The notes beneath the pieces were generated by a model. That model ran no database searches, had not been told where the DNA came from, and saw only the letters and a list, made by a program, of their open reading frames with translations. A program made the position numbers and the translations under genes. This document shows positions 12,828 to 47,464 of a stretch of DNA of 64,000 nt, in pieces. Every line of letters begins with the position of its first letter. Position 1 is the first letter of the stretch. Source of the stretch: Escherichia coli 042 (GTDB taxonomy: Bacteria > Pseudomonadota > Gammaproteobacteria > Enterobacterales > Enterobacteriaceae); assembly GCF_000027125.1 (NCBI RefSeq), contig NC_017626.1. One strand, given 5' to 3'.

Positions 12828-14020
12828 CAGATTTCCCCTCGAGCTTTCAAAATATCGTGAACGGTGAAGATGTCTTTATCGCCGCGACCGGAAAGGTTAA
12901 CCACCAGTAGCTGCTCTTTTTCCGGGTTTTCGCGCATCATTTTCAGCGCATGGGCCAGGGCGTGGGAGGACTCCAGCGCCGGGATAATCCCTTCGTGCAG
13001 GCAGAGTGTTTTGAAGGCTTCCAGTGCTTCATCATCGGTAATTGACACATAATCAGCGCGCCCAGTGCTGTTGAGATACGCGTGTTGTGGGCCGACAGAC
13101 GGGAAATCCAGTCCGGCAGAAATGGAGTAAGATTCTTCAATCTGCCCGTCTTCGGTTTGCATCATCGGCGCTTTCATACCGAAATAGATGCCCACGCGAC
13201 CATGTTTTAACGGTGCGCCGTGCTCGCCGGTTTCGATACCGTGACCGCCAGGCTCCACACCAATCAGGCCGACGTCGGTTTCGTTGATGAAATCAGCAAA
13301 CATGCCGATGGCATTTGAACCGCCGCCAACACAAGCGATAACCGCATCCGGCAGGCGACCTTCTCTTTCCAGAATCTGTGCTTTGGTTTCTTCGCCAATC
13401 ATCCGCTGGAACTCACGGACAATGGTCGGATAAGGATGTGGGCCAGCTGCGGTGCCCAGCATATAGTGCGCGGTTTCATAACTGCCGGACCAGTCGCGCA
13501 GCGCCTCATTACAGGCATCTTTCAGCGTCGCGGAACCGCTATGCACCGGGATCACTTCCGCGCCCATTAAATGCATACGAAAAACGTTAGGCGACTGGCG
13601 TTCAACGTCTTTGGCACCCATATAAATACGGCATTTCAGGCCGAGCAGGGCGCTGGCAAGGGCCGACGCCACGCCATGCTGACCGGCACCGGTTTCGGCG
13701 ATGATTTCGGTTTTACCCATCCGCTTCGCCAGTAAAGCCTGACCGAGCACCTGGTTAGTTTTATGCGCGCCGCCGTGCAGCAAATCTTCGCGCTTGAGAT
13801 ACAGCGTGGTGTTAGTGCCAGCCGTGATGTTCTGGCATTTGGTGAGTGCGGTTGGACGCCCGGCATAGTTTTTCAGCAGGTCGTTGAACTGGGCCTGAAA
13901 TTCAGGATCTTTTTGCGCGCTGACAAAAGCTTCTTCCAGCTGGCGCAGAGCAGGCATCAGGATTTGTGGCACGTACATGCCGCCAAACTCACCAAAATAG
14001 GGGTTAAGTAATGTTGTCAT
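12827..14020 (-). CDS. trpB: Tryptophan synthase beta chain
   Basis: 397 aa; [25 protein letters not shown] recognised; stop overlaps trpA start. Confidence 0.97.
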
Positions 14021-14031
14021 TGTTCCTTTCC

Positions 14032-15393
14032 TTAATATGCGCGCAGCGTCTGGAAAACCGAGGCCAAAAGACGTGCGTCTTTGATGCCCGGTTGCGACTC
14101 TACAGCAGAATTAAAATCAAGTCCGGCGCAGCCGGTTTGTGCCGCTTCCACGCAGTTATCTGCGCCTAAGCCCCCCGCCAGCAGAACGTTGCCAAGCGAT
14201 TGACCGTTTAACAGTGACCAGTCGAAACGTTGCCCGCTTCCACCCTGGCCGTTGTCTAAAACATATTTATCAACGTGCTGAAGCTCGCGGGCGGGCAGGG
14301 TTTCACCGACGCTTAATGCTTTCCAGATGGCAATGTTTGCGGGCAGCGCGCCACGCAATGTGTCGATATATTGTTGATCTTCATTACCATGCAGTTGCAC
14401 TGCCGCAAGTGATAACACCTTAGCTTTGTCCACCACATCGGCAATATCGTGATTGCGGAACACGCCAACATACTGCAACGGTGCCGCAGCCATCACTTCC
14501 TGCGCCTGTTCAACGTTGACGCAACGCGGTGATGTCGCAACAAAAATCAACCCACCGTAAATCGCGCCCGCGTCATAAGCTGCTTTAGCATCTTGCCCAC
14601 GCGTCAGGCCACATACTTTATTCTCACCCAGCAACACCCGGCGCACGGCGGCGTTCAAATCGTCATGGGCCATCAACGCCGAACCAATCAGAAAACCGTT
14701 AGCGAAGTGGCTTAACTCGCGCACCTGAGCGTAAGTATTGATGCCGGATTCGCTGATTACCGTCACGTTGTGCCCCAGTTTCGGCGCAAGCTCGCGGGTA
14801 CGGTTGAGATCAATCGACAAATCACGCAGATCGCGGTTGTTGATGCCAACGACCTTTGCCCCCAATGCAATGGCACGCTCCAGTTCCTCTTCATTACTGA
14901 CTTCGGTCAGCACACCCATCTCCAGACTGTGGGCGACGGCAGCAAGCTGGCGATATTGTTCGTCATCCAGTACTGAAAGCATTAATAAGCAGGCATCGGC
15001 CTGGTAATAGCGCGCCAGATAGATCTGGTAAGGATCGATAATGAAGTCTTTACATAAAATCGGCTGCGGGGCGATTTGGCTGACGATGGGGAGGAAATCA
15101 AAGCTCCCCTGAAAATATTTCTCATCAGTCAGCACCGAAATTGCCGAAGCGTAATGTTTATAAATGGCGGCAATGCGTGCCGGATCGAAATCATCACGGA
15201 TCACGCCTTTTGACGGCGACGCTTTTTTGCACTCCAGAATAAACGACGTGCGTGCACCCTGAAGTGCATCATAAAAATGTCGCGTGCTCGGCTGAACCTC
15301 ATTCTGAAAACTGGCCAGCGGTTGCTGCTCTTTGCGGGTTTCTACCCAAATCGCCTTGTCTGCGACGATTTTCGCTAAAACGGTTTGCATCAT
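14032..15393 (-). CDS. trpC: Bifunctional indole-3-glycerol phosphate synthase / phosphoribosylanthranilate isomerase
   Basis: 453 aa; operon position and recognised sequence. Confidence 0.96.
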
Positions 15394-16989
15394 TTACCCT
15401 CGTGCCGCCAGTGCGGTGACTCTGTCGTAAGCGGAACCACTGCGCAGTACCTCAAGAACGGTTTGCGCATTGGCTTGCAGATCTTCATGGCCATGCAGGC
15501 GCATTAACATGGCGACATTCGCCGCGACGGCTGCTTCATGGGCGGCGTCGCCTTTACCTTGTAACAAGCGTGTTAAAATGTCACGGTTTTCTTCCGGTGT
15601 TCCGCCTGCCAGTTGCTCCTGGTGGTAGGGTGTCAGGCCAAAATCTTCTGCAGTTAGCTGATAGCTCTTAATTTCACCGTCATGCAGTTCGGCAACGATT
15701 GTCGGCGCGTGTAATGAAACTTCATCCATCCCGCCGCTGTGCACTACCGCAGCGCGTTGATACCCCAGCACGCGCAAGGTTTCGGCAATCGGCAGCACCA
15801 GTTCCGGACTATAAACACCAATTAGCGCCAGCGGCGGATGCGCCGGGTTAATCAATGGCCCCAGCACATTGAACAGGGTGCGGGTTTTCAGTTGCTGGCG
15901 AACCGGCATCGCGTGGCGGAATCCGGTGTGATATTTCGGCGCAAAGAGGAAACAGACGCCTAACTCATCCAGCGCCTGGCGCGATTTATCGGCGTTCATA
16001 TCAAGATTAATACCGAACGCCGCCAGCAGATCCGACGAGCCGGATTTACTGGAGACGCTACGGTTGCCGTGTTTCGCCACTTTCAGCCCACAGGCCGCGG
16101 CGACAAAAGCACTGGCGGTAGAAATATTGATACTGTTGCTGCCGTCACCACCGGTACCGACGATATCGGCAAACAGATAATCCGGGCGCGGGAACGGCGC
16201 GGCGTTTTCCAGTAGCGCGGTTGCTGCTCCGGCGATTTCGTTTGGGTGCTCGCCGCGAATTTTCATGCTTACCAGAGCCGCCGCGAGCTGTTCTGGCTTC
16301 AGCTCGCCATGCACCACTGCTGAAAACAGCTGGTGGCTTTCTTGCTGGCTAAGCGTCTGCGCCTGATACAGTTTTTCCAGAATCGGTTGCAGCGTGTTAG
16401 TCGGTTCCAGTTTCTGCTGCGCCCAGGCCAATGTTTGTTCCAGCAGGCGAGCGCCCTGGGTAGTAAGAATGGATTCCGGATGGAACTGGAATCCACAAAC
16501 GCGATCTGCATCGTGACGCACTGCCATCACCATGCCATTAAAATGGGCGTTGATGGTTAAACCGGCCGGAATGTTACTGCCAACCAGCGAGTGATAACGC
16601 GCCACTGGCAGCGGGTTTGTTAATCCGGCAAACATCGCCTGACCGTCGTGTTCAATGCTGGAGGCTTTACCGTGAAGAATTTCGCCCGCCTGACCGACAT
16701 ACCCCCCATAAGCTTCGACAATCGCCTGATGACCGAGGCAAATGCCAATAATAGCCAGCTTGCCGCGCAGGCGGGTGAGGAGTTCCGGCATACAACCGGC
16801 TTCGCTTGGCACTCCGGGGCCAGGAGAAAGCATCAGCACCGGATTGCTCATCGTCGCCAGGCGTTCAATTAAAGTCTGCGCCGGAATATGGTTGCGGTAA
16901 ATCACCACGTTATGACCATTGCTGCGCAACTGATCTGCCAGGTTGTAAGTAAAAGAGTCGATATTATCGAGCAGCAGAATGTCAGCCAT
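15394..16989 (-). CDS. trpD: Anthranilate synthase component II / anthranilate phosphoribosyltransferase
   Basis: 531 aa; glutamine amidotransferase N-domain plus PRTase domain. Confidence 0.96.
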
Positions 16990-18551
16990 CAGAAAGTCTC
17001 CTGTGCATGATGCGCGGTGGCAATAGCGCGCAGTACAGCGCGGGCTTTATTACGGGTTTCGTCGGCTTCCGACTGCGGAACAGAATCAAGTACCACGCCA
17101 GCACCGGCTTGCACGGTGGCGATACCGTTTTCCACCAGCGCCGAGCGGATCACAATGCAGGTGTCGAGATCGCCATGCGCGGTGAAATAACCTACCGCGC
17201 CGCCGTAGCTGCCGCGGCGACGACCTTCCGCCTCGGCAATTAACTGCATGGCGCGCACTTTCGGCGCACCGCTTAACGTGCCCATATTCATACAGGCGCG
17301 GTAAGCGTGCAGGGCGTCGAGATCGTGGCGCAGCTCACCGACCACGCGGGAGACCAGGTGCATCACATAAGAATAACGGTCAACTTTGGTGAGATCGGCG
17401 ACGTAGCGACTACCGGGAGTGCAAATACGCGCCAGGTCATTACGGGCGAGATCCACCAGCATCAGATGTTCAGAAAGCTCTTTATGATCGGTACGCATTT
17501 CCAGTTCGATGCGGCTGTCGAGGTCTCTGTCCAGCGAACCATCGGCACGACGACCGCGTGGACGTGTTCCGGCAATCGGGTAGATCTCAATCTGGCGGCT
17601 GGTGGCGTCATACTTGAGCGAGCTCTCCGGCGACGCGCCAAACAGGGTGAAATCATTATCCTGCATAAAAAACATATACGGGCTGGGATTACTCTTTTTC
17701 AGCACGTAATAGGCCGCCAGCGGTGACGGGCAGGGCAGAGAGAAACGGCGAGATGGCACCACCTGGAAAATTTCTCCGGCGCGAATCGCTTTTTGCAACA
17801 AACGCACTACGCCACCGAACTCTTCATCGCTCTGGTTACATTCACAATGCATATGCGGCACGGAAACCACCGGCAGCGGTGGCGCGGTTTCGGTCAGCTG
17901 CTGGCGAAGATCGTTCAGGCGAGCAGTGAGACGTTGTTTTTCTTCTTCATTCGGAGCAAAAAGACTGGCCTGAATGCGGGTGCTTTTTTTCTGATGGTCA
18001 ATCACCATCAGCGTTTCAGCGAGATAAAAACAGAAATCAGGACAGTTATTTTCCGCTGCCAGTTGTGGTAAATCTTCAAATCCCGCCACAAGGTCATAAG
18101 AGAACAGGCCGCCGAAGAACATGGCTTCTCGTTCTTCCTTCGGTACATTCAACAGATTCTGCAATAAGCGGAAAGCGTCAAAAACCGAAAGGGAGCATAA
18201 GCGGGCGTCTTCATCCAGCAGTGGACTGACAGGGGGGAAGCGCAGCACACGGCAGTTTGGTGATTGTTCACTTTCCACACCCGCAGGCAGGGCGTTATCC
18301 AGTAGTGCCAGCAGGGCTTCGCCATTGCCGGAAAGTGCCTGAATTGTGACAGTGTCACCTAATGCTGTAATGCGCAGCGCACTGTCTATCAGCAGCAGAC
18401 TTTTTAAATCATCTTTGCTGTCGATATCTGCGGATTCCAGCAGCAGCGTTGCTGGACGATGCCCACACAACTGGTGAAAAAGCGCAGTCGGGTTGTCGCG
18501 ATAAGCGCCTTCGCAGGTTAGCAGTTCGAGAGTCGGTTTTTGTGTTTGCAT
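16989..18551 (-). CDS. trpE: Anthranilate synthase component I
   Basis: 520 aa; [30 protein letters not shown] recognised. Confidence 0.97.
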
Positions 18552-18572
18552 TGTTATTCTCTAATTTTGTTC

Positions 18573-18600
18573 AAAAAAAGCCCGCTCATTAGGCGGGCTG
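18573..18600 (-). terminator. trp attenuator (leader terminator, 3:4 hairpin)
   Basis: Minus-strand cagcccgcctaatgagcgggc followed by a T-run, between trpL and trpE. Confidence 0.9.
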
Positions 18601-18641
18601 GGTATCTGATTGCTTTACGCATGGTGAATACACTGCCCGTT

Positions 18642-18686
18642 TCAGGAAGTGCGCCACCAACCTTTCAGTACGAAAATTGCTTTCAT
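18642..18686 (-). CDS. trpL: trp leader peptide [14 protein letters not shown] with tandem Trp codons
   Basis: Translated codon by codon from the minus strand; 14 aa plus TGA stop. Confidence 0.95.
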
Positions 18687-18713
18687 TGTCGATACCCTTT
18701 TTACGTGAACTTG

Positions 18714-18748
18714 CGTACTAGTTAACTAGTTCGATGATTAATTGTCAA
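18714..18748 (-). promoter_or_regulatory. trp promoter with TrpR operator
   Basis: Exact operator palindrome cgaactagttaactagtacg on the minus strand at 18714-18733; -35 TTGACA at 18743-18748. Confidence 0.9.
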
Positions 18749-18823
18749 CAGCTCATTTCAGAATATTTGCCAGAACCGTTATGATGTCGGCGCAAAAAAC
18801 ATTATCCAGAACGGGAGTGCGCC

Positions 18824-19705
18824 TTGAGCGACACGAATTACGCAGTGATTTACGACCTGCACAGCCATACCACAGCTTCCGATGGCTGCCTGACGCCAGA
18901 AGCATTGGTGCACCGTGCAGTCGAGATGCGCGTCGGCACCCTGGCGATCACCGACCATGACACCACAGCTGCAATCGCGCCAGCAAGAGAGGAAATTTCA
19001 CGTTCGGGACTGGCGCTGAATCTTATACCCGGCGTGGAAATTTCCACGGTCTGGGAAAATCATGAAATTCATATTGTCGGGCTGAATATTGATATTACTC
19101 ATCCGCTAATGTGTGAGTTCCTCGCGCAGCAGACAGAACGGCGCAATCAGCGGGCGCAGCTGATTGCCGAAAGACTTGAAAAAGCGCAGATACCAGGTGC
19201 GCTGGAAGGCGCGCAACGACTGGCGCAGGGCGGTGCGGTGACGCGCGGTCATTTTGCTCGTTTCCTTGTGGAGTGCGGCAAAGCCAGTTCAATGGCGGAT
19301 GTCTTTAAAAAATATCTGGCGCGCGGGAAAACCGGATACGTTCCGCCACAGTGGTGTACAATAGAACAAGCTATTGATGTCATTCATCATTCTGGCGGTA
19401 AGGCGGTGCTAGCTCATCCTGGGCGGTACAATCTTAGTGCTAAATGGCTGAAAAGATTGGTTGCGCATTTTGCTGAACACCACGGCGACGCGATGGAAGT
19501 CGCGCAGTGCCAGCAATCGCCCAATGAACGCACCCAGCTGGCGACACTTGCGCGTCAGCATCATTTATGGGCATCACAAGGATCTGATTTTCATCAGCCG
19601 TGCCCGTGGATTGAACTGGGTCGTAAACTCTGGCTGCCTGCAGGCGTTGAAGGCGTCTGGCAGCTATGGGAACAGCCGCAGAACACCACAGAGAGGGAAT
19701 TATGA
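18824..19705 (+). CDS. trpH: PHP-domain 5-prime to 3-prime exoribonuclease (TrpH/YciV, RNase AM)
   Basis: 293 aa; PHP motif DLHSHT; K-12 synteny. Confidence 0.93.
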   Translation: MSDTNYAVIYDLHSHTTASDGCLTPEALVHRAVEMRVGTLAITDHDTTAAIAPAREEISRSGLALNLIPGVEISTVWENHEIHIVGLNIDITHPLMCEFLAQQTERRNQRAQLIAERLEKAQIPGALEGAQRLAQGGAVTRGHFARFLVECGKASSMADVFKKYLARGKTGYVPPQWCTIEQAIDVIHHSGGKAVLAHPGRYNLSAKWLKRLVAHFAEHHGDAMEVAQCQQSPNERTQLATLARQHHLWASQGSDFHQPCPWIELGRKLWLPAGVEGVWQLWEQPQNTTEREL

Positions 19706-20322
19706 GCCAGTTTTTTTATATTCATCCTGATAACCCGCAGCAACGACTGATCAACCAGGCGGTGGAGATCGTGCGTAAAGGCGGGGTGATTGTTTATCCA
19801 ACTGATTCCGGCTATGCGCTCGGCTGTAAAATTGAAGATAAAAACGCCATGGAGCGTATTTGTCGAATTCGCCAGCTGCCGGACGGTCACAACTTTACCC
19901 TGATGTGTCGCGATCTTTCTGAGCTCTCGACCTATTCATTCGTGGATAACGTTGCGTTTCGTTTGATGAAAAACAACACGCCGGGCAACTATACCTTCAT
20001 CCTGAAGGGGACGAAGGAAGTGCCACGCCGTCTGTTGCAGGAAAAACGCAAAACAATCGGTATGCGTGTGCCTTCTAACCCGATTGCGCAGGCGTTGCTT
20101 GAAGCATTGGGCGAACCGATGCTTTCCACTTCGCTAATGCTGCCAGGCAGCGAATTTACCGAATCCGACCCGGAAGAAATTAAAGACCGTCTGGAAAAAC
20201 AGGTGGATTTGATTATTCACGGCGGCTATCTCGGGCAGAAACCAACAACGGTTATCGATCTTACTGATGATACGCCGGTCGTATTGCGTGAAGGCGTAGG
20301 TGATGTGAAGCCTTTCTTATAA
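19702..20322 (+). CDS. yciO: YciO, Sua5/YrdC/YciO-family protein
   Basis: 206 aa from MSQFFYIHPDNPQQ; ATGA overlap with trpH stop. Confidence 0.92.
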   Translation: MSQFFYIHPDNPQQRLINQAVEIVRKGGVIVYPTDSGYALGCKIEDKNAMERICRIRQLPDGHNFTLMCRDLSELSTYSFVDNVAFRLMKNNTPGNYTFILKGTKEVPRRLLQEKRKTIGMRVPSNPIAQALLEALGEPMLSTSLMLPGSEFTESDPEEIKDRLEKQVDLIIHGGYLGQKPTTVIDLTDDTPVVLREGVGDVKPFL

Positions 20323-20349
20323 CAAATTGCGTGCCACGGATGGAAGACT

Positions 20350-22251
20350 ATGGCAGGGAAGTTTCGCTGCATTTTGCTGTTGATAGCAGGGCTGTTTGTA
20401 TCATCTCTAAGTTATGCAGAAAACACGGAGATCCCTTCTTATGAAGAAGGGATCTCGCTCTTTGATGTTGAAGCCACTCTGCAACCGGACGGGGTGCTCG
20501 ACATCAAAGAGAACATTCATTTTCAGGCGCGAAATCAGCAGATTAAGCACGGATTTTATCGTGATTTACCACGACTATGGATGCAGCCTAATGGTGACGC
20601 TGCACTGCTGAACTATCATATTGTTGGCGTCACCCGTGATGGTGTTCCTGAACCCTGGCATCTTGACTGGCATATCGGTTTAATGAGTATTGTCGTGGGC
20701 GATAAACAACGTTTCTTGCCTCAAGGTGACTATCATTATCAAATTCATTATCAGGTTAAAAATGCTTTCCTGCGTGAGGGAGATTCTGATCTGTTAATCT
20801 GGAACGTGACCGGTAACAAGTGGCCGTTTGAAATCTATAAGACCCGATTTTCTCTCCAGTTCTCTAATATTGCGGGTAATCCATTTAGCGAAATCGATCT
20901 CTTTACCGGAGAAGAGGGCGACACATATCGAAATGGCCGCATCCTTGAGGACGGAAGAATTGAATCCCGCGATCCGTTTTATCGTGAAGACTTCACGGTC
21001 CTCTACCGCTGGCCTCACGCTTTACTTAGCAATGCCCCGGCTCTACAAACGACGAATATTTTCAGCCATCTTCTTTTACCCTCCACGTCATCGTTGTTAA
21101 TTTGGTTTCCGTGTCTGTTCCTGGTTTGTGGATGGTTATATCTCTGGAAGCGCAGGCCGCAATTTACGCCGGTAGATGTGATTGAAACCGATGTCATTCC
21201 GCCAGATTACACACCCGGCATGTTACGTCTCGATGCGAAGCTGGTTTACGACGATAAAGGTTTTTGTGCCGATATCGTAAATCTGATTGTGAAAGGCAAA
21301 ATTCATCTGGAAGATCAGTATGACAAGAACCAGCAAATCCTGATTCGTGTTAATGAAGGCGCGACCAGAAATAATGCGGTATTACTGCCCGCAGAGCAGT
21401 TATTACTGGAAGCGTTATTTCGTAAAGGCGATAAGGTCGTTCTTACGGGGAGACGCAACAGAGTCTTACGCAGGGCATTTTTACGGATGCAGAAATTTTA
21501 TCTGCCGCGTAAAAAGTCTTCGTTTTACCGATCTGATGCGTTTTTGCAATGGGGCGGAATGGCAATATTGGCGGTCATTCTCTACGGTAACCTGAGTCCC
21601 GTAGGCTGGGCAGGAATGAGTCTGGTAGGCGATATGTGTATTATGATCTGCTGGCTTCTTCCTTTTTTATTTTGTTCCCTTGAGCTTTTATTTGCCCGCG
21701 ATGATGACAAGCCTTGCGTTAATCGTGTAATCATCACTTTGTTTTTACCACTGATTTGTTCAGGCATGGCTATTTACTCTCTCTACATCAATGTCGGAGA
21801 TGTATTCTTTTACTGGTATATGCCAGCGGGTTATTTTAGCGCTGTTGTCCTGACCGGTTATCTCACTGGCATGGGGTATATTTTTCTGCCAAAGTTTACC
21901 CAAACTGGGCAGCAACGTTATGCCCACGGTGAAGCTATCGTTAACTATCTTGCGCGTAAAGAGGCAGCAACACACAGTGGGCGGCGGCGGAAAGGGGAAA
22001 CACGGAAACTGGATTACGCGTTGTTAGGTTGGGCGGTCTCGGCAAACCTTGGCAGAGAATGGGCAGCACGTATCACCCCATCACTCACAGCGGCTGTTCG
22101 CGCCCCGGAAATTGCCCGTAGTGGCGTTTTATTCTCATTACAGACGCACCTGAGTTGCGGGGCCTATACCAGTTTGTTGGGGCGGAGCTATTCCGGTGGT
22201 GGTTCTGGCGCTGGTGGCGGTGCGGGTGGCGGAGGCGGTGGTGGCTGGTAA
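20350..22251 (+). CDS. yciQ: YciQ, predicted inner membrane protein (DUF2207) with Gly-rich C-terminal tail
   Basis: 633 aa; signal sequence plus several hydrophobic segments; C-terminus GGGSGAGGGAGGGGGGGW. Confidence 0.88.
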   Translation: MAGKFRCILLLIAGLFVSSLSYAENTEIPSYEEGISLFDVEATLQPDGVLDIKENIHFQARNQQIKHGFYRDLPRLWMQPNGDAALLNYHIVGVTRDGVPEPWHLDWHIGLMSIVVGDKQRFLPQGDYHYQIHYQVKNAFLREGDSDLLIWNVTGNKWPFEIYKTRFSLQFSNIAGNPFSEIDLFTGEEGDTYRNGRILEDGRIESRDPFYREDFTVLYRWPHALLSNAPALQTTNIFSHLLLPSTSSLLIWFPCLFLVCGWLYLWKRRPQFTPVDVIETDVIPPDYTPGMLRLDAKLVYDDKGFCADIVNLIVKGKIHLEDQYDKNQQILIRVNEGATRNNAVLLPAEQLLLEALFRKGDKVVLTGRRNRVLRRAFLRMQKFYLPRKKSSFYRSDAFLQWGGMAILAVILYGNLSPVGWAGMSLVGDMCIMICWLLPFLFCSLELLFARDDDKPCVNRVIITLFLPLICSGMAIYSLYINVGDVFFYWYMPAGYFSAVVLTGYLTGMGYIFLPKFTQTGQQRYAHGEAIVNYLARKEAATHSGRRRKGETRKLDYALLGWAVSANLGREWAARITPSLTAAVRAPEIARSGVLFSLQTHLSCGAYTSLLGRSYSGGGSGAGGGAGGGGGGGW

Positions 22252-22463
22252 TCAAGCTGATGTTAATCGAAACAAGCTTTAACCATAAAGATAGTGTAGT
22301 ATGTTGCGCCTCAAAGCCAGGCCAGTTAAAACGTCGAGTCGTTTACTTAAGGCCTGAAGAGTTCAAACAGACTTTACTATCAGTGAGTCAGATGTAAGTT
22401 CTGACTCACTGTTGCACAAAAGCATATCAGACGCCTGGGAAGGCGACACCAAAAGGAAGCTCT

Positions 22464-23339
22464 ATGAGCGAAAAGCTACAGAAAGTGCTGGCGCGTGCCG
22501 GCCACGGTTCTCGCCGTGAAATCGAATCTATTATTGAAGCCGGTCGTGTGAGTGTTGATGGCAAAATTGCTAAACTCGGCGATCGTGTTGAAATTACCCC
22601 TGGATTGAAAATCCGTATCGATGGTCACCTGATTTCGGTACGTGAGTCCGCTGAACAAATTTGTCGCGTTCTGGCCTATTACAAACCGGAAGGTGAGTTG
22701 TGTACCCGTAACGATCCGGAAGGGCGTCCAACGGTATTTGACCGTCTGCCAAAGCTGCGTGGCGCACGCTGGATTGCCGTAGGTCGCCTGGACGTTAACA
22801 CCTGTGGTCTGCTGCTGTTCACCACCGACGGTGAACTGGCAAACCGTTTAATGCATCCAAGCCGTGAAGTTGAACGTGAATATGCCGTGCGTGTATTTGG
22901 TCAGGTTGACGACGCGAAACTGCGTGATTTGAGTCGTGGCGTGCAGCTGGAAGATGGTCCGGCAGCTTTTAAAACCATCAAGTTCAGCGGCGGCGAAGGG
23001 ATCAACCAGTGGTACAACGTTACTCTGACCGAAGGCCGTAACCGTGAAGTTCGTCGTCTTTGGGAAGCGGTTGGTGTGCAGGTAAGCCGCTTGATCCGTG
23101 TTCGTTACGGTGATATCCCACTGCCAAAAGGTCTGCCACGCGGTGGCTGGACGGAGCTGGACCTCGCCCAGACTAACTATCTGCGCGAACTGGTGGAGCT
23201 ACCGCCAGAAACCAGCTCTAAAGTCGCTGTAGAAAAAGACCGTCGTCGTATGAAGGCGAATCAGATTCGTCGTGCGGTTAAGCGTCACAGTCAGGTGAGC
23301 GGCGGTCGTCGCTCTGGTGGACGTAATAATAACGGTTAA
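22464..23339 (+). CDS. rluB: 23S rRNA pseudouridine synthase B
   Basis: 291 aa; S4-like N-terminal domain, RsuA-family core, Arg-rich C-tail. Confidence 0.94.
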
Positions 23340-30441: not shown

Positions 30442-30771
30442 TTTCTTGCGTTATTTCCGGCACCTTTTATGTAGAGAAGGTGCCGGAATATATTCTCTTT
30501 TGTTGCTTATTTGTATCCGCTGCACAATATTTTTATCCCTCATATTTATAGGGTAAATTACTTGTAAAGTAGTGTCTAATTACCCGCCTCGCAAACTCCA
30601 GTTTTCAAATATCTATTTCAGGTCAAAAGATTGAATTATTCACTGGAGACGATTCGTAAATTCGCTGGATTTTTGACTAAAGTTTCTTTAGGATTTGTCT
30701 CATCGTATGATTAATTACACCAATCGTTCAACGTCTTGCTGATAAGTGATGGCGATTATATGAGGTTAGCA

Positions 30772-47394: not shown

Positions 47395-47464
47395 CACCTC
47401 ATTCTGACAAGATTTAATCTCTTGTCAGAATGAGGTGAATAATCTGGAAGGAGGATTCAGAAAA

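Follow-up and report, generated by a model that had tools for sequence, protein, structure and literature searches.

A transcribed hairpin in the rluB leader of Escherichia coli is probably the remnant of a genomic-island arm

The palindrome in the yciQ-rluB spacer

We analyzed a stretch of 64,000 nucleotides from Escherichia coli 042 (the window), which carries the genes rnm(trpH)-yciO-yciQ-rluB-cobO-yciK-sohB in this order. An earlier note, made from the letters of the window alone, had pointed out a perfect 12-bp inverted repeat with a 7-nt loop at 22381-22411, between yciQ and rluB. The repeat is as described: its arms are complementary at 12 of 12 positions, and the distance to the rluB start codon, which had been put at about 50 nt, is 52 nt to the ATG (Table 1). 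From the yciQ stop codon to the hairpin is 130 nt, on the same strand. The remark that the repeat is not a canonical intrinsic terminator also stands for this copy. The stem-loop is stable as RNA (-20.1 kcal/mol, z = -4.2 against shuffled sequences), but the bases 3' of the stem are TTGCACAA (UUGCAC in the RNA) and not a T-run, no 3' end has been mapped there, and a scan of the site for terminators and sigma-70 consensus promoters made no call.

Table 1. Features of the yciQ-rluB region and their positions in the window
Feature	Position	Strand	Remarks
Whole inserted segment, 2107 bp	20323..22429	.	Window compared with L001/L002
yciQ (DUF2207)	20350..22251	+	Surviving cargo gene of decayed island; Pfam
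Decayed tyrosine-integrase 5' end	22263..22375	-	Reads ..GATYYTIFMVKACFD and stop, vs ..MIRGRTYYTNFRLNDS.. in intact copies (L084, L086, L039, L053)
-10 hexamer TAGTAT, rluB promoter carried by island remnant	22297..22302	+	7 nt upstream of mapped start
rluB 5' untranslated leader, 154 nt	22310..22463	+	SMRT-Cappable-seq start, mapped via K-12 sequence
Hairpin left arm	22381..22392	+	CAGTGAGTCAGA; aligned with homologues
Hairpin loop TGTAAGT	22393..22399	+	Length and sequence vary among homologues
Hairpin right arm	22400..22411	+	TCTGACTCACTG
Spacer, hairpin to attachment core	22412..22429	+	TTGCACAAAAGCATATCA; homologues show TTTTTGAAAGTATACCA here
16-bp attachment core GACGCCTGGGAAGGCG	22430..22445	.	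Direct repeat flanking H15, A17 and BA92 islands
rluB coding sequence	22464..23339	+	Gene served by leader

Perfect inverted repeats with arms of at least 12 bp and loops of 3-10 nt are rare; 0.05 are expected per 64-kb window, and only 3.5% of Markov simulations gave any. Despite this expectation, the window holds four. One of the others has 13-bp arms (GAGATCCCTTCTT-ATG-AAGAAGGGATCTC, 20428-20456) and lies within the yciQ coding sequence, about 80 nt past its start; the remaining two are at 30455-30488 and 47400-47432. The palindrome studied here occurs in a single copy per genome (a median of one place in E. coli genomes), and neither a covariance model nor a similarity search found other members of a family. 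Because it is single-copy, we rejected its identification as a repeated extragenic palindrome (REP/BIME or MITE). An Rfam scan of this region of the window and of one intact island arm (see below) returned nothing relevant. One arm resembles a stretch of 23S rRNA at 8 of 9 bases, which we take to be a chance match.

Presence and absence of the yciQ segment

The palindrome belongs to a larger segment that stands in place of the 66-bp native yciO-rluB spacer of yciQ-less E. coli. Among 5426 complete E. coli genomes, 3976 (about 73%) contain the yciQ-rluB spacer, and about 940 match only its rluB-proximal 45-51 bp. In two of the latter, which were examined directly, yciO is followed by 100 bp and then rluB; both yciQ and the palindrome are missing. 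To look beyond the species, we compared the rluB loci (L numbers) of 80 GTDB species-representative Enterobacterales genomes, of which one is labelled E. coli (L005). At this locus, yciQ is absent from all the remaining 79 representatives; the L005 sequence, which reaches only 189 nt upstream of rluB, is not part of that count. Other species carry different genes between yciO and rluB, e.g., those for Hcp, an MlrA-like regulator, a PRD regulator, a glycosyltransferase or an integrase. The G+C content is about 45% in yciQ, vs 52-55% in the flanks. In its presence/absence polymorphism and its atypical composition, the segment thus has the properties of a genomic-island remnant. The earlier note had proposed to look for conservation across Enterobacteriaceae: the segment is present in about 73% of E. 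coli, and homologous hairpins accompany integrase islands or their remnants in other genera, but the yciQ segment itself is absent from the other species sampled.

The native yciO-rluB spacer (L001 2960-2990, L004-L023) contains a TATACT-acGCGGCC block that is conserved, and downstream of it a GC-rich hairpin. The sequence of this native hairpin covaries between genera, and in Enterobacter and Lelliottia it has a T-run. It may serve both as the yciO terminator and as part of the native rluB leader.

Transcription of rluB through the palindrome

K-12 MG1655 (NC_000913.3) is identical to the window at the promoter and start region and at the hairpin; its rluB ATG is at 1,326,852 and its palindrome at 1,326,769-1,326,799. 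In SMRT-Cappable-seq data from K-12, 37 reads share a capped transcript start at 1,326,700, and 18 of these end at the rluB terminator at 1,327,761; the transcript covers b1269 (rluB) only, and no transcript end point falls in 1,326,7xx-8xx, i.e., none is near the hairpin (Yan et al. 2018, PMC6131387). A second rluB start, at 1,326,297 (+), lies inside yciQ (PMC6131387). Term-seq also places the rluB 3' end at 1,327,761 and none at the hairpin (Adams et al. 2021, PMC7815308).

The start at 1,326,700, whose position comes from one transcription-start data set, corresponds to 22310 of the window and is 71 nt upstream of the palindrome. Since transcription begins there and reads extend to the rluB terminator, the palindrome is inside the leader, at +72 to +102 of the messenger (on the sense strand, between the mapped start and the ATG), and it is read through. 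Start-site mapping, which had been suggested as a check, therefore puts the start upstream of the palindrome. Of the two roles offered for the palindrome in the earlier note, a structure in the rluB 5' untranslated region gains support from the upstream start, from the reads reaching the rluB terminator and from the strand-specific covariation described below. The other, a regulator-binding site, is disfavored by compensating changes in the arms, a variable loop, one-strand G·U pairs and the lack of other half-sites in the window. In our judgment, the palindrome is likely to be an RNA stem-loop of the untranslated rluB leader and not a regulator-binding site.

When the full leader is folded, it forms separate hairpins that leave the ribosome-binding site free, and in this predicted structure the palindrome does not obviously mask translation signals. 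We also folded the 60 nt preceding a conserved box that begins at 22430 (see below). In most species, and for any leader type, this region folds better than shuffled sequences (median z = -2.0; 51% below -2), with the end of the stem usually 5-20 nt short of the box. A stem-loop therefore seems to recur at this position in rluB leaders.

Published K-12 data contain further transcript features in this neighborhood. Transcripts of yciV-yciO mostly stop before yciQ, a bicyclomycin-sensitive 3' end lies inside yciQ at 1,325,258 (+), and there is an antisense feature at 1,326,939 (-) within rluB.

An integrase remnant carries the rluB promoter

In several species, the gene immediately upstream of rluB, on the minus strand, encodes a tyrosine recombinase of about 555 aa (PF00589), and a distant search found the same integrase gene in a few E. 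coli. In the window, the minus strand of 22263-22375 is a degenerate copy of the first ~35 codons of this integrase. The K-12 rluB promoter sits in this leftover integrase 5' end, on the opposite strand. Similar integrase remnants occur in many genera, including Leclercia, Kosakonia, Pseudocitrobacter, Kluyvera, Cedecea, Mangrovibacter, Pluralibacter and Yersinia. These remnants break off at different points, yet all keep the TAnnAT block. The block containing the -10 element, gtgTAnnATgtgcggcc, is shared by intact islands and the remnants of many genera, and all remnants keep one block of about 35 bp (aaaattcgtgTAnnATgtgcggccacgaa). Searching with nhmmer located the block at 26 loci, on the plus strand in every case and 22-113 nt before the attachment core. 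TAGTAT-gt-GCGGCC of the island block corresponds in position to TATACT-ac-GCGGCC in the native spacer of strains without yciQ. This similarity suggests that the island brings a functional stand-in for the promoter that it would displace.

A third type of leader (L017, L032-L035, L045, L047, L054, L055, and also L063, L065-L067, L075, L078, L080, L081 and L083) combines a near-consensus promoter, TTACA-N17-TATAAT, about 75 nt upstream of the core, with TAAnnnnTTGATTTT, which follows this promoter at a fixed 17-19 nt; a conserved hairpin is absent. The other strand of TAAnnnnTTGATTTT is a perfect match to the IHF consensus.

Intact islands and their attachment core

Islands that retain an integrase gene reveal the likely source of the segment. 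E. coli H15 (L084) has an 8.3-kb island at 13390-21743, between yciO and rluB, which is flanked by a perfect direct repeat, GACGCCTGTGAAGGCG, at 13390 and 21728. A related 9.1-kb island with the same repeats is found in E. coli A17 (L086, 12578-21711). On the left side of the H15 island, the native spacer continues unbroken to the repeat. On the right side come, in order, the integrase 5' end, CAGT(G/T)AGTTAAG-loop-GCTAACTCGTTG, TTTTTGAAAGTATACCA, the repeat and rluB. From the repeats and this order, it follows that the 16-mer is the attachment core and that the hairpin is part of the integrase-proximal arm of the island. The core consensus in the islands is GACGCCTG(G/T)GAAGGCG, also given as GACGCCTGKGAAGGCG.

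E. coli BA92 (L090, 4120-17460) is particularly informative. Here, yciQ is followed by a K-12-type spacer with the same palindrome, then by GACGCCTGGGAAGGCG, and then by a 13-kb island that encodes a 557-aa integrase, has a hairpin of its own (CAGTGAGTTAGC...TAACTCGTTG TTTTGG) and ends at the same 16-mer, followed by rluB. This stacking implies that the core next to the palindrome is a live attachment site and that each island brings its own hairpin. Indeed, a homologous hairpin lies between the integrase gene and the repeat in each of the H15, A17 and BA92 islands. Their cargo differs: DUF4238, a serine recombinase and YagK/YfjJ in H15; in A17, a RelA/SpoT-domain protein that matches the PADLOC candidate defence family PDC-S33 (E = 4e-81); and a helicase and phage-like genes in BA92.

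The window segment is thus homologous to integrase-bearing, repeat-flanked elements at the same site. That 20323-22429 is a decayed genomic island, with the palindrome originating from an island arm, is well supported, as is its transcriptional context. A view of the sequence alone missed the 2.1-kb insertion absent from other species, the descent from an island arm and the T-run in homologues.

The core is the beginning of a box, GACGCCTG(G/T)GAAGGCGACA (22430-22449), that is invariant in all 80 sampled Enterobacterales species and sits 14 nt 5' of the rluB ribosome-binding site. The box folds as a small hairpin, CGCCU-GGGA-AGGCG, and has no Rfam match. Its role for rluB is possibly that of a translational operator.

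Relatives of the integrase were also sought in other collections. There was no close relative in a phage collection and only one in a plasmid collection, with 59% identity and annotated as DUF3258. Viral and metagenome contigs gave no match to the exact pattern of the circular attachment junction, which is weak as negative evidence, and a metagenome scan for variant arms gave two matches, both unrelated and due to chance. In the searchable literature, we found no description of an integration site in the rluB leader or of this island family; the lone preprint that names yciO uses it as a marker locus.

Two further observations concern the islands. Repeats of GTGTGACAG are present in both island arms (L084 13468-13487 and 21608-21627; L090 4375-4392), and those in the right arm overlap the codons for SHKLSH of the long integrase reading frame; these repeats are candidate arm-type binding sites for the integrase. 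The integrase start in RefSeq is the short form in H15 and A17 and the long form in BA92.

Evolution of the stem

We aligned 22 homologous arms, comprising the window, two other E. coli-type alleles, intact islands and remnants. The RNAalifold consensus stem has 9 bp, and 5 of these 9 pairs show double-sided changes. Paired cells make up 93.9% of the alignment, vs 88.3 +/- 0.8% when shuffled (0 of 500 shuffles reached the observed value) and 26-57% with the partners slid. Pairing is also strand-specific, at 93.9% on the plus strand vs 79.8% on the minus strand, and there are 29 G·U or U·G cells vs one C·A. In considering these numbers, it is important to note that the aligned arms are related by descent and that 16 of the 29 G·U cells come from one column. 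In relatives, the plus strand folds far more stably than the minus strand (e.g., -18.1 vs -6.3 and -17.5 vs -5.2 kcal/mol), and the loop varies from 7 to about 15 nt. Covariation and strand bias fit an RNA hairpin on the rluB-sense strand and not a duplex-DNA site recognized by a dimeric protein.

Identity over 64 bp is seen in 2634 of 3975 E. coli genomes; the non-identical class has 1342 genomes. To this class belong JJ1886 and APEC E18006, whose right arm is TCTGACTCATTG; their C-to-T change converts a G-C pair to G·U on the plus strand and is the sole arm polymorphism among the E. coli alleles aligned. One further E. coli allele has the loop TGTCAGT. The divergent allele of L005, CAGTGGGGCAGg...tCTGCCCCACTG, has two compensated double changes with every pair kept; 8 of the 31 hairpin positions are changed, and the flanks are almost unchanged. 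This allele could have arisen by recombination with another island arm rather than by selection in place. Because the whole leader is nearly invariant within E. coli, selection on the hairpin is inseparable from recent common descent.

Many relatives have what the window copy lacks. At least four T within 6 nt after the stem are found in 13 of the 22 homologues, typically as TTTTTGAA, and the copy of Kosakonia quasisacchari is scored as terminator-like by the scan. The T-run is absent from the E. coli and Yersinia remnants.

A minus-strand, promoter-like TGaTATGCT adjoins the core. We rejected it as a promoter, given that no K-12 reverse-strand start is listed there and that the G·U bias argues against a minus-strand RNA.

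Proposed history of the leader

The explanation that we favor, with a probability of roughly 0.7, is that the palindrome is both a leader stem-loop and a fossil of a mobile element whose remnant promoter drives rluB. Small genomic islands with a tyrosine integrase of about 555 aa would insert at the 16-bp box upstream of the rluB ribosome-binding site, and such an insertion would separate rluB from its native promoter. The integrase-proximal end would supply, on the strand opposite the integrase and within its first codons, a -10 element (TAnnAT) with a GC-rich stretch, and downstream of this a hairpin, usually with a T-run, about 18 nt upstream of the box. Decay in most E. coli would have reduced the island to yciQ and an end of about 170 bp; the leftover promoter would now drive rluB, and the hairpin would have ended up in the resulting leader.

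For the outward transcript of intact islands, the hairpin and its U-run could serve as an intrinsic terminator or as an attenuator. Termination would limit read-out into rluB and end an RNA of about 110 nt that is antisense to the start of the integrase. However, efficient termination in relatives would leave rluB without an evident promoter, so termination would have to be partial or regulated. In the E. coli copy, which has lost the U-run, the hairpin would not terminate and would be at most a structural element of the leader, e.g., in pausing or stability; its present function in rluB expression is something that we infer from sequence.

A more specific proposal is that the hairpin ends the ~110-nt RNA from the outward promoter in order to lower integrase expression from the antisense strand, with read-through producing the rluB messenger. 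We offer this as a speculation that is unlikely to hold. If it were true, one promoter-hairpin unit would couple the stability of the island to the expression of the host gene that it interrupts, and upon decay of the island, selection for rluB expression would keep precisely this unit. Such selection would explain why the same integrase fragment is found upstream of rluB in many enterobacterial genera, including E. coli K-12.

Alternative explanations

The hairpin might instead have mattered for the island only, either by terminating the antisense RNA or by slowing transcription across the attachment site, and persist merely as a neutral remnant that is still young. We consider this doubtful, though it may hold for present-day E. 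coli. The window has lost both the integrase gene and the T-run, the near-invariance within E. coli covers the whole leader and not the stem alone, and two loci (L038 and L040) keep the remnant promoter block and rluB while the hairpin is lost. Against neutrality, L005 has changed its hairpin heavily with all pairs kept and flanks barely changed, the only arm polymorphism in the aligned E. coli alleles is the G-C to G·U change, and most rluB leaders, of unrelated sequence, have a stable hairpin 5-20 nt before the box.

It is less probable that the sequence is an element of the attachment arm that functions as DNA, i.e., a site for IHF, excisionase or the integrase, with an incidental palindromic form. 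A distance of 18 nt separates the palindrome from the attachment core. On the minus strand, the right arm and T-run of many relatives amount to an A-tract with WATCAANNNNTTR, which fits the IHF consensus; sites matching this consensus lie at a similar distance in the other island arm, and TAAnnnnTTGATTTT is conserved without a hairpin in another leader type. However, the IHF consensus is broken in the window copy, and neither the one-strand G·U bias nor the compensated changes would be expected for recognition of duplex DNA. Moreover, integration has occurred beside two different upstream contexts, which indicates that the palindrome is not required in the target. A DNA-level role of the hairpin arm in intact islands may nonetheless exist.

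Two other readings are very unlikely. An operator for a dimeric transcription factor controlling rluB would account for perfect dyad symmetry near the promoter region, but the palindrome is 71-101 nt downstream of the mapped start, and its arms covary instead of being conserved, with an arm spacing that ranges from 7 to about 15 nt. Half-sites are no more frequent in the window than chance allows (6 vs 3.25 expected), there is one copy per genome, and the whole element is missing from the native leader of related species. Equally hard to accept is a terminator or 3'-end-protecting hairpin of the yciQ (yciVOQ) transcript. The position, 130 nt past the yciQ stop and on the same strand, and the stable stem would suit such a role. 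On the other side, there is no T-run, neither Term-seq nor SMRT-Cappable-seq has a 3' end there, the hairpin is downstream of the rluB start, and the homologous hairpin travels with integrases and unrelated cargo, not with yciQ.

Finally, the 12-bp arms and 7-bp spacer recall the core-type crossover sites of tyrosine recombinases such as loxP or FRT, and there are integrase genes nearby in relatives, but the island junctions contradict this reading: what is duplicated at both ends is the 16-mer, and the palindrome is at one end only.

Comparison with known systems

Like intrinsic terminators and leader attenuators, the palindrome forms a stable stem-loop in the sense RNA, in a leader between promoter and start codon. 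The resemblance to intrinsic terminators extends to the 4-6 U directly after the stem in 13 of 22 homologues, one of which passes a simple terminator scan. The window copy differs in having UUGCAC after the stem and no mapped 3' end, and in being read through. Unlike for leader attenuators, no alternative antiterminator pairing or sensing mechanism was identified for the hairpin. REP/BIME elements are also intergenic perfect palindromes able to form RNA hairpins, whereas the rluB-leader palindrome is single-copy, is not GC-rich and has no family members that we could find.

Islands and phages that rebuild the gene into which they insert, such as those targeting tRNA genes, resemble the rluB islands in their site-specific tyrosine integrase, in a short core that is identical at the two ends and in a conserved host target. 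In both cases the element supplies a replacement for displaced host sequence, which at tRNA genes is a copy of the tRNA 3' end. By contrast, the rluB islands target the 5' leader of a protein-coding gene, what is replaced is a promoter and leader, and the replacement promoter lies within the first codons of the integrase itself, on the opposite strand. The system is mostly an ordinary tyrosine-integrase island, and is unusual in these two respects, its target and the location of its promoter. The outward promoters of insertion sequences, e.g., pOUT/RNA-OUT of IS10, are similar in that a promoter at the end of the element reads outward, antisense to the 5' end of the recombinase gene, and produces a transcript with a stem-loop. 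Unlike IS10, the rluB element is an integrase island in which antisense control of int would be an extrapolation from the arrangement of the parts. Unlike the outward promoters of insertion sequences, that of the rluB island became the normal promoter of a host gene in K-12.

These results offer an explanation for a K-12 intergenic region that is without annotation: its rluB promoter and leader are probably parts of a mobile element that have been domesticated. What follows in practice for the palindrome is modest, in that it is probably a transcribed leader hairpin and neither an operator nor a terminator. The 16-bp box in the rluB leader constitutes a previously undescribed integration hot spot that is conserved across Enterobacterales, and the islands show a way for an element to separate a gene from its promoter by insertion and yet leave the gene expressed. 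The gene yciQ, a locus widely used for 'neutral' integration, is island cargo beside a still-active attachment site. The downstream side of rluB is variable too: in E. coli W13-16 (L087 3857-5197), two additional hypothetical genes lie between rluB and cobO.
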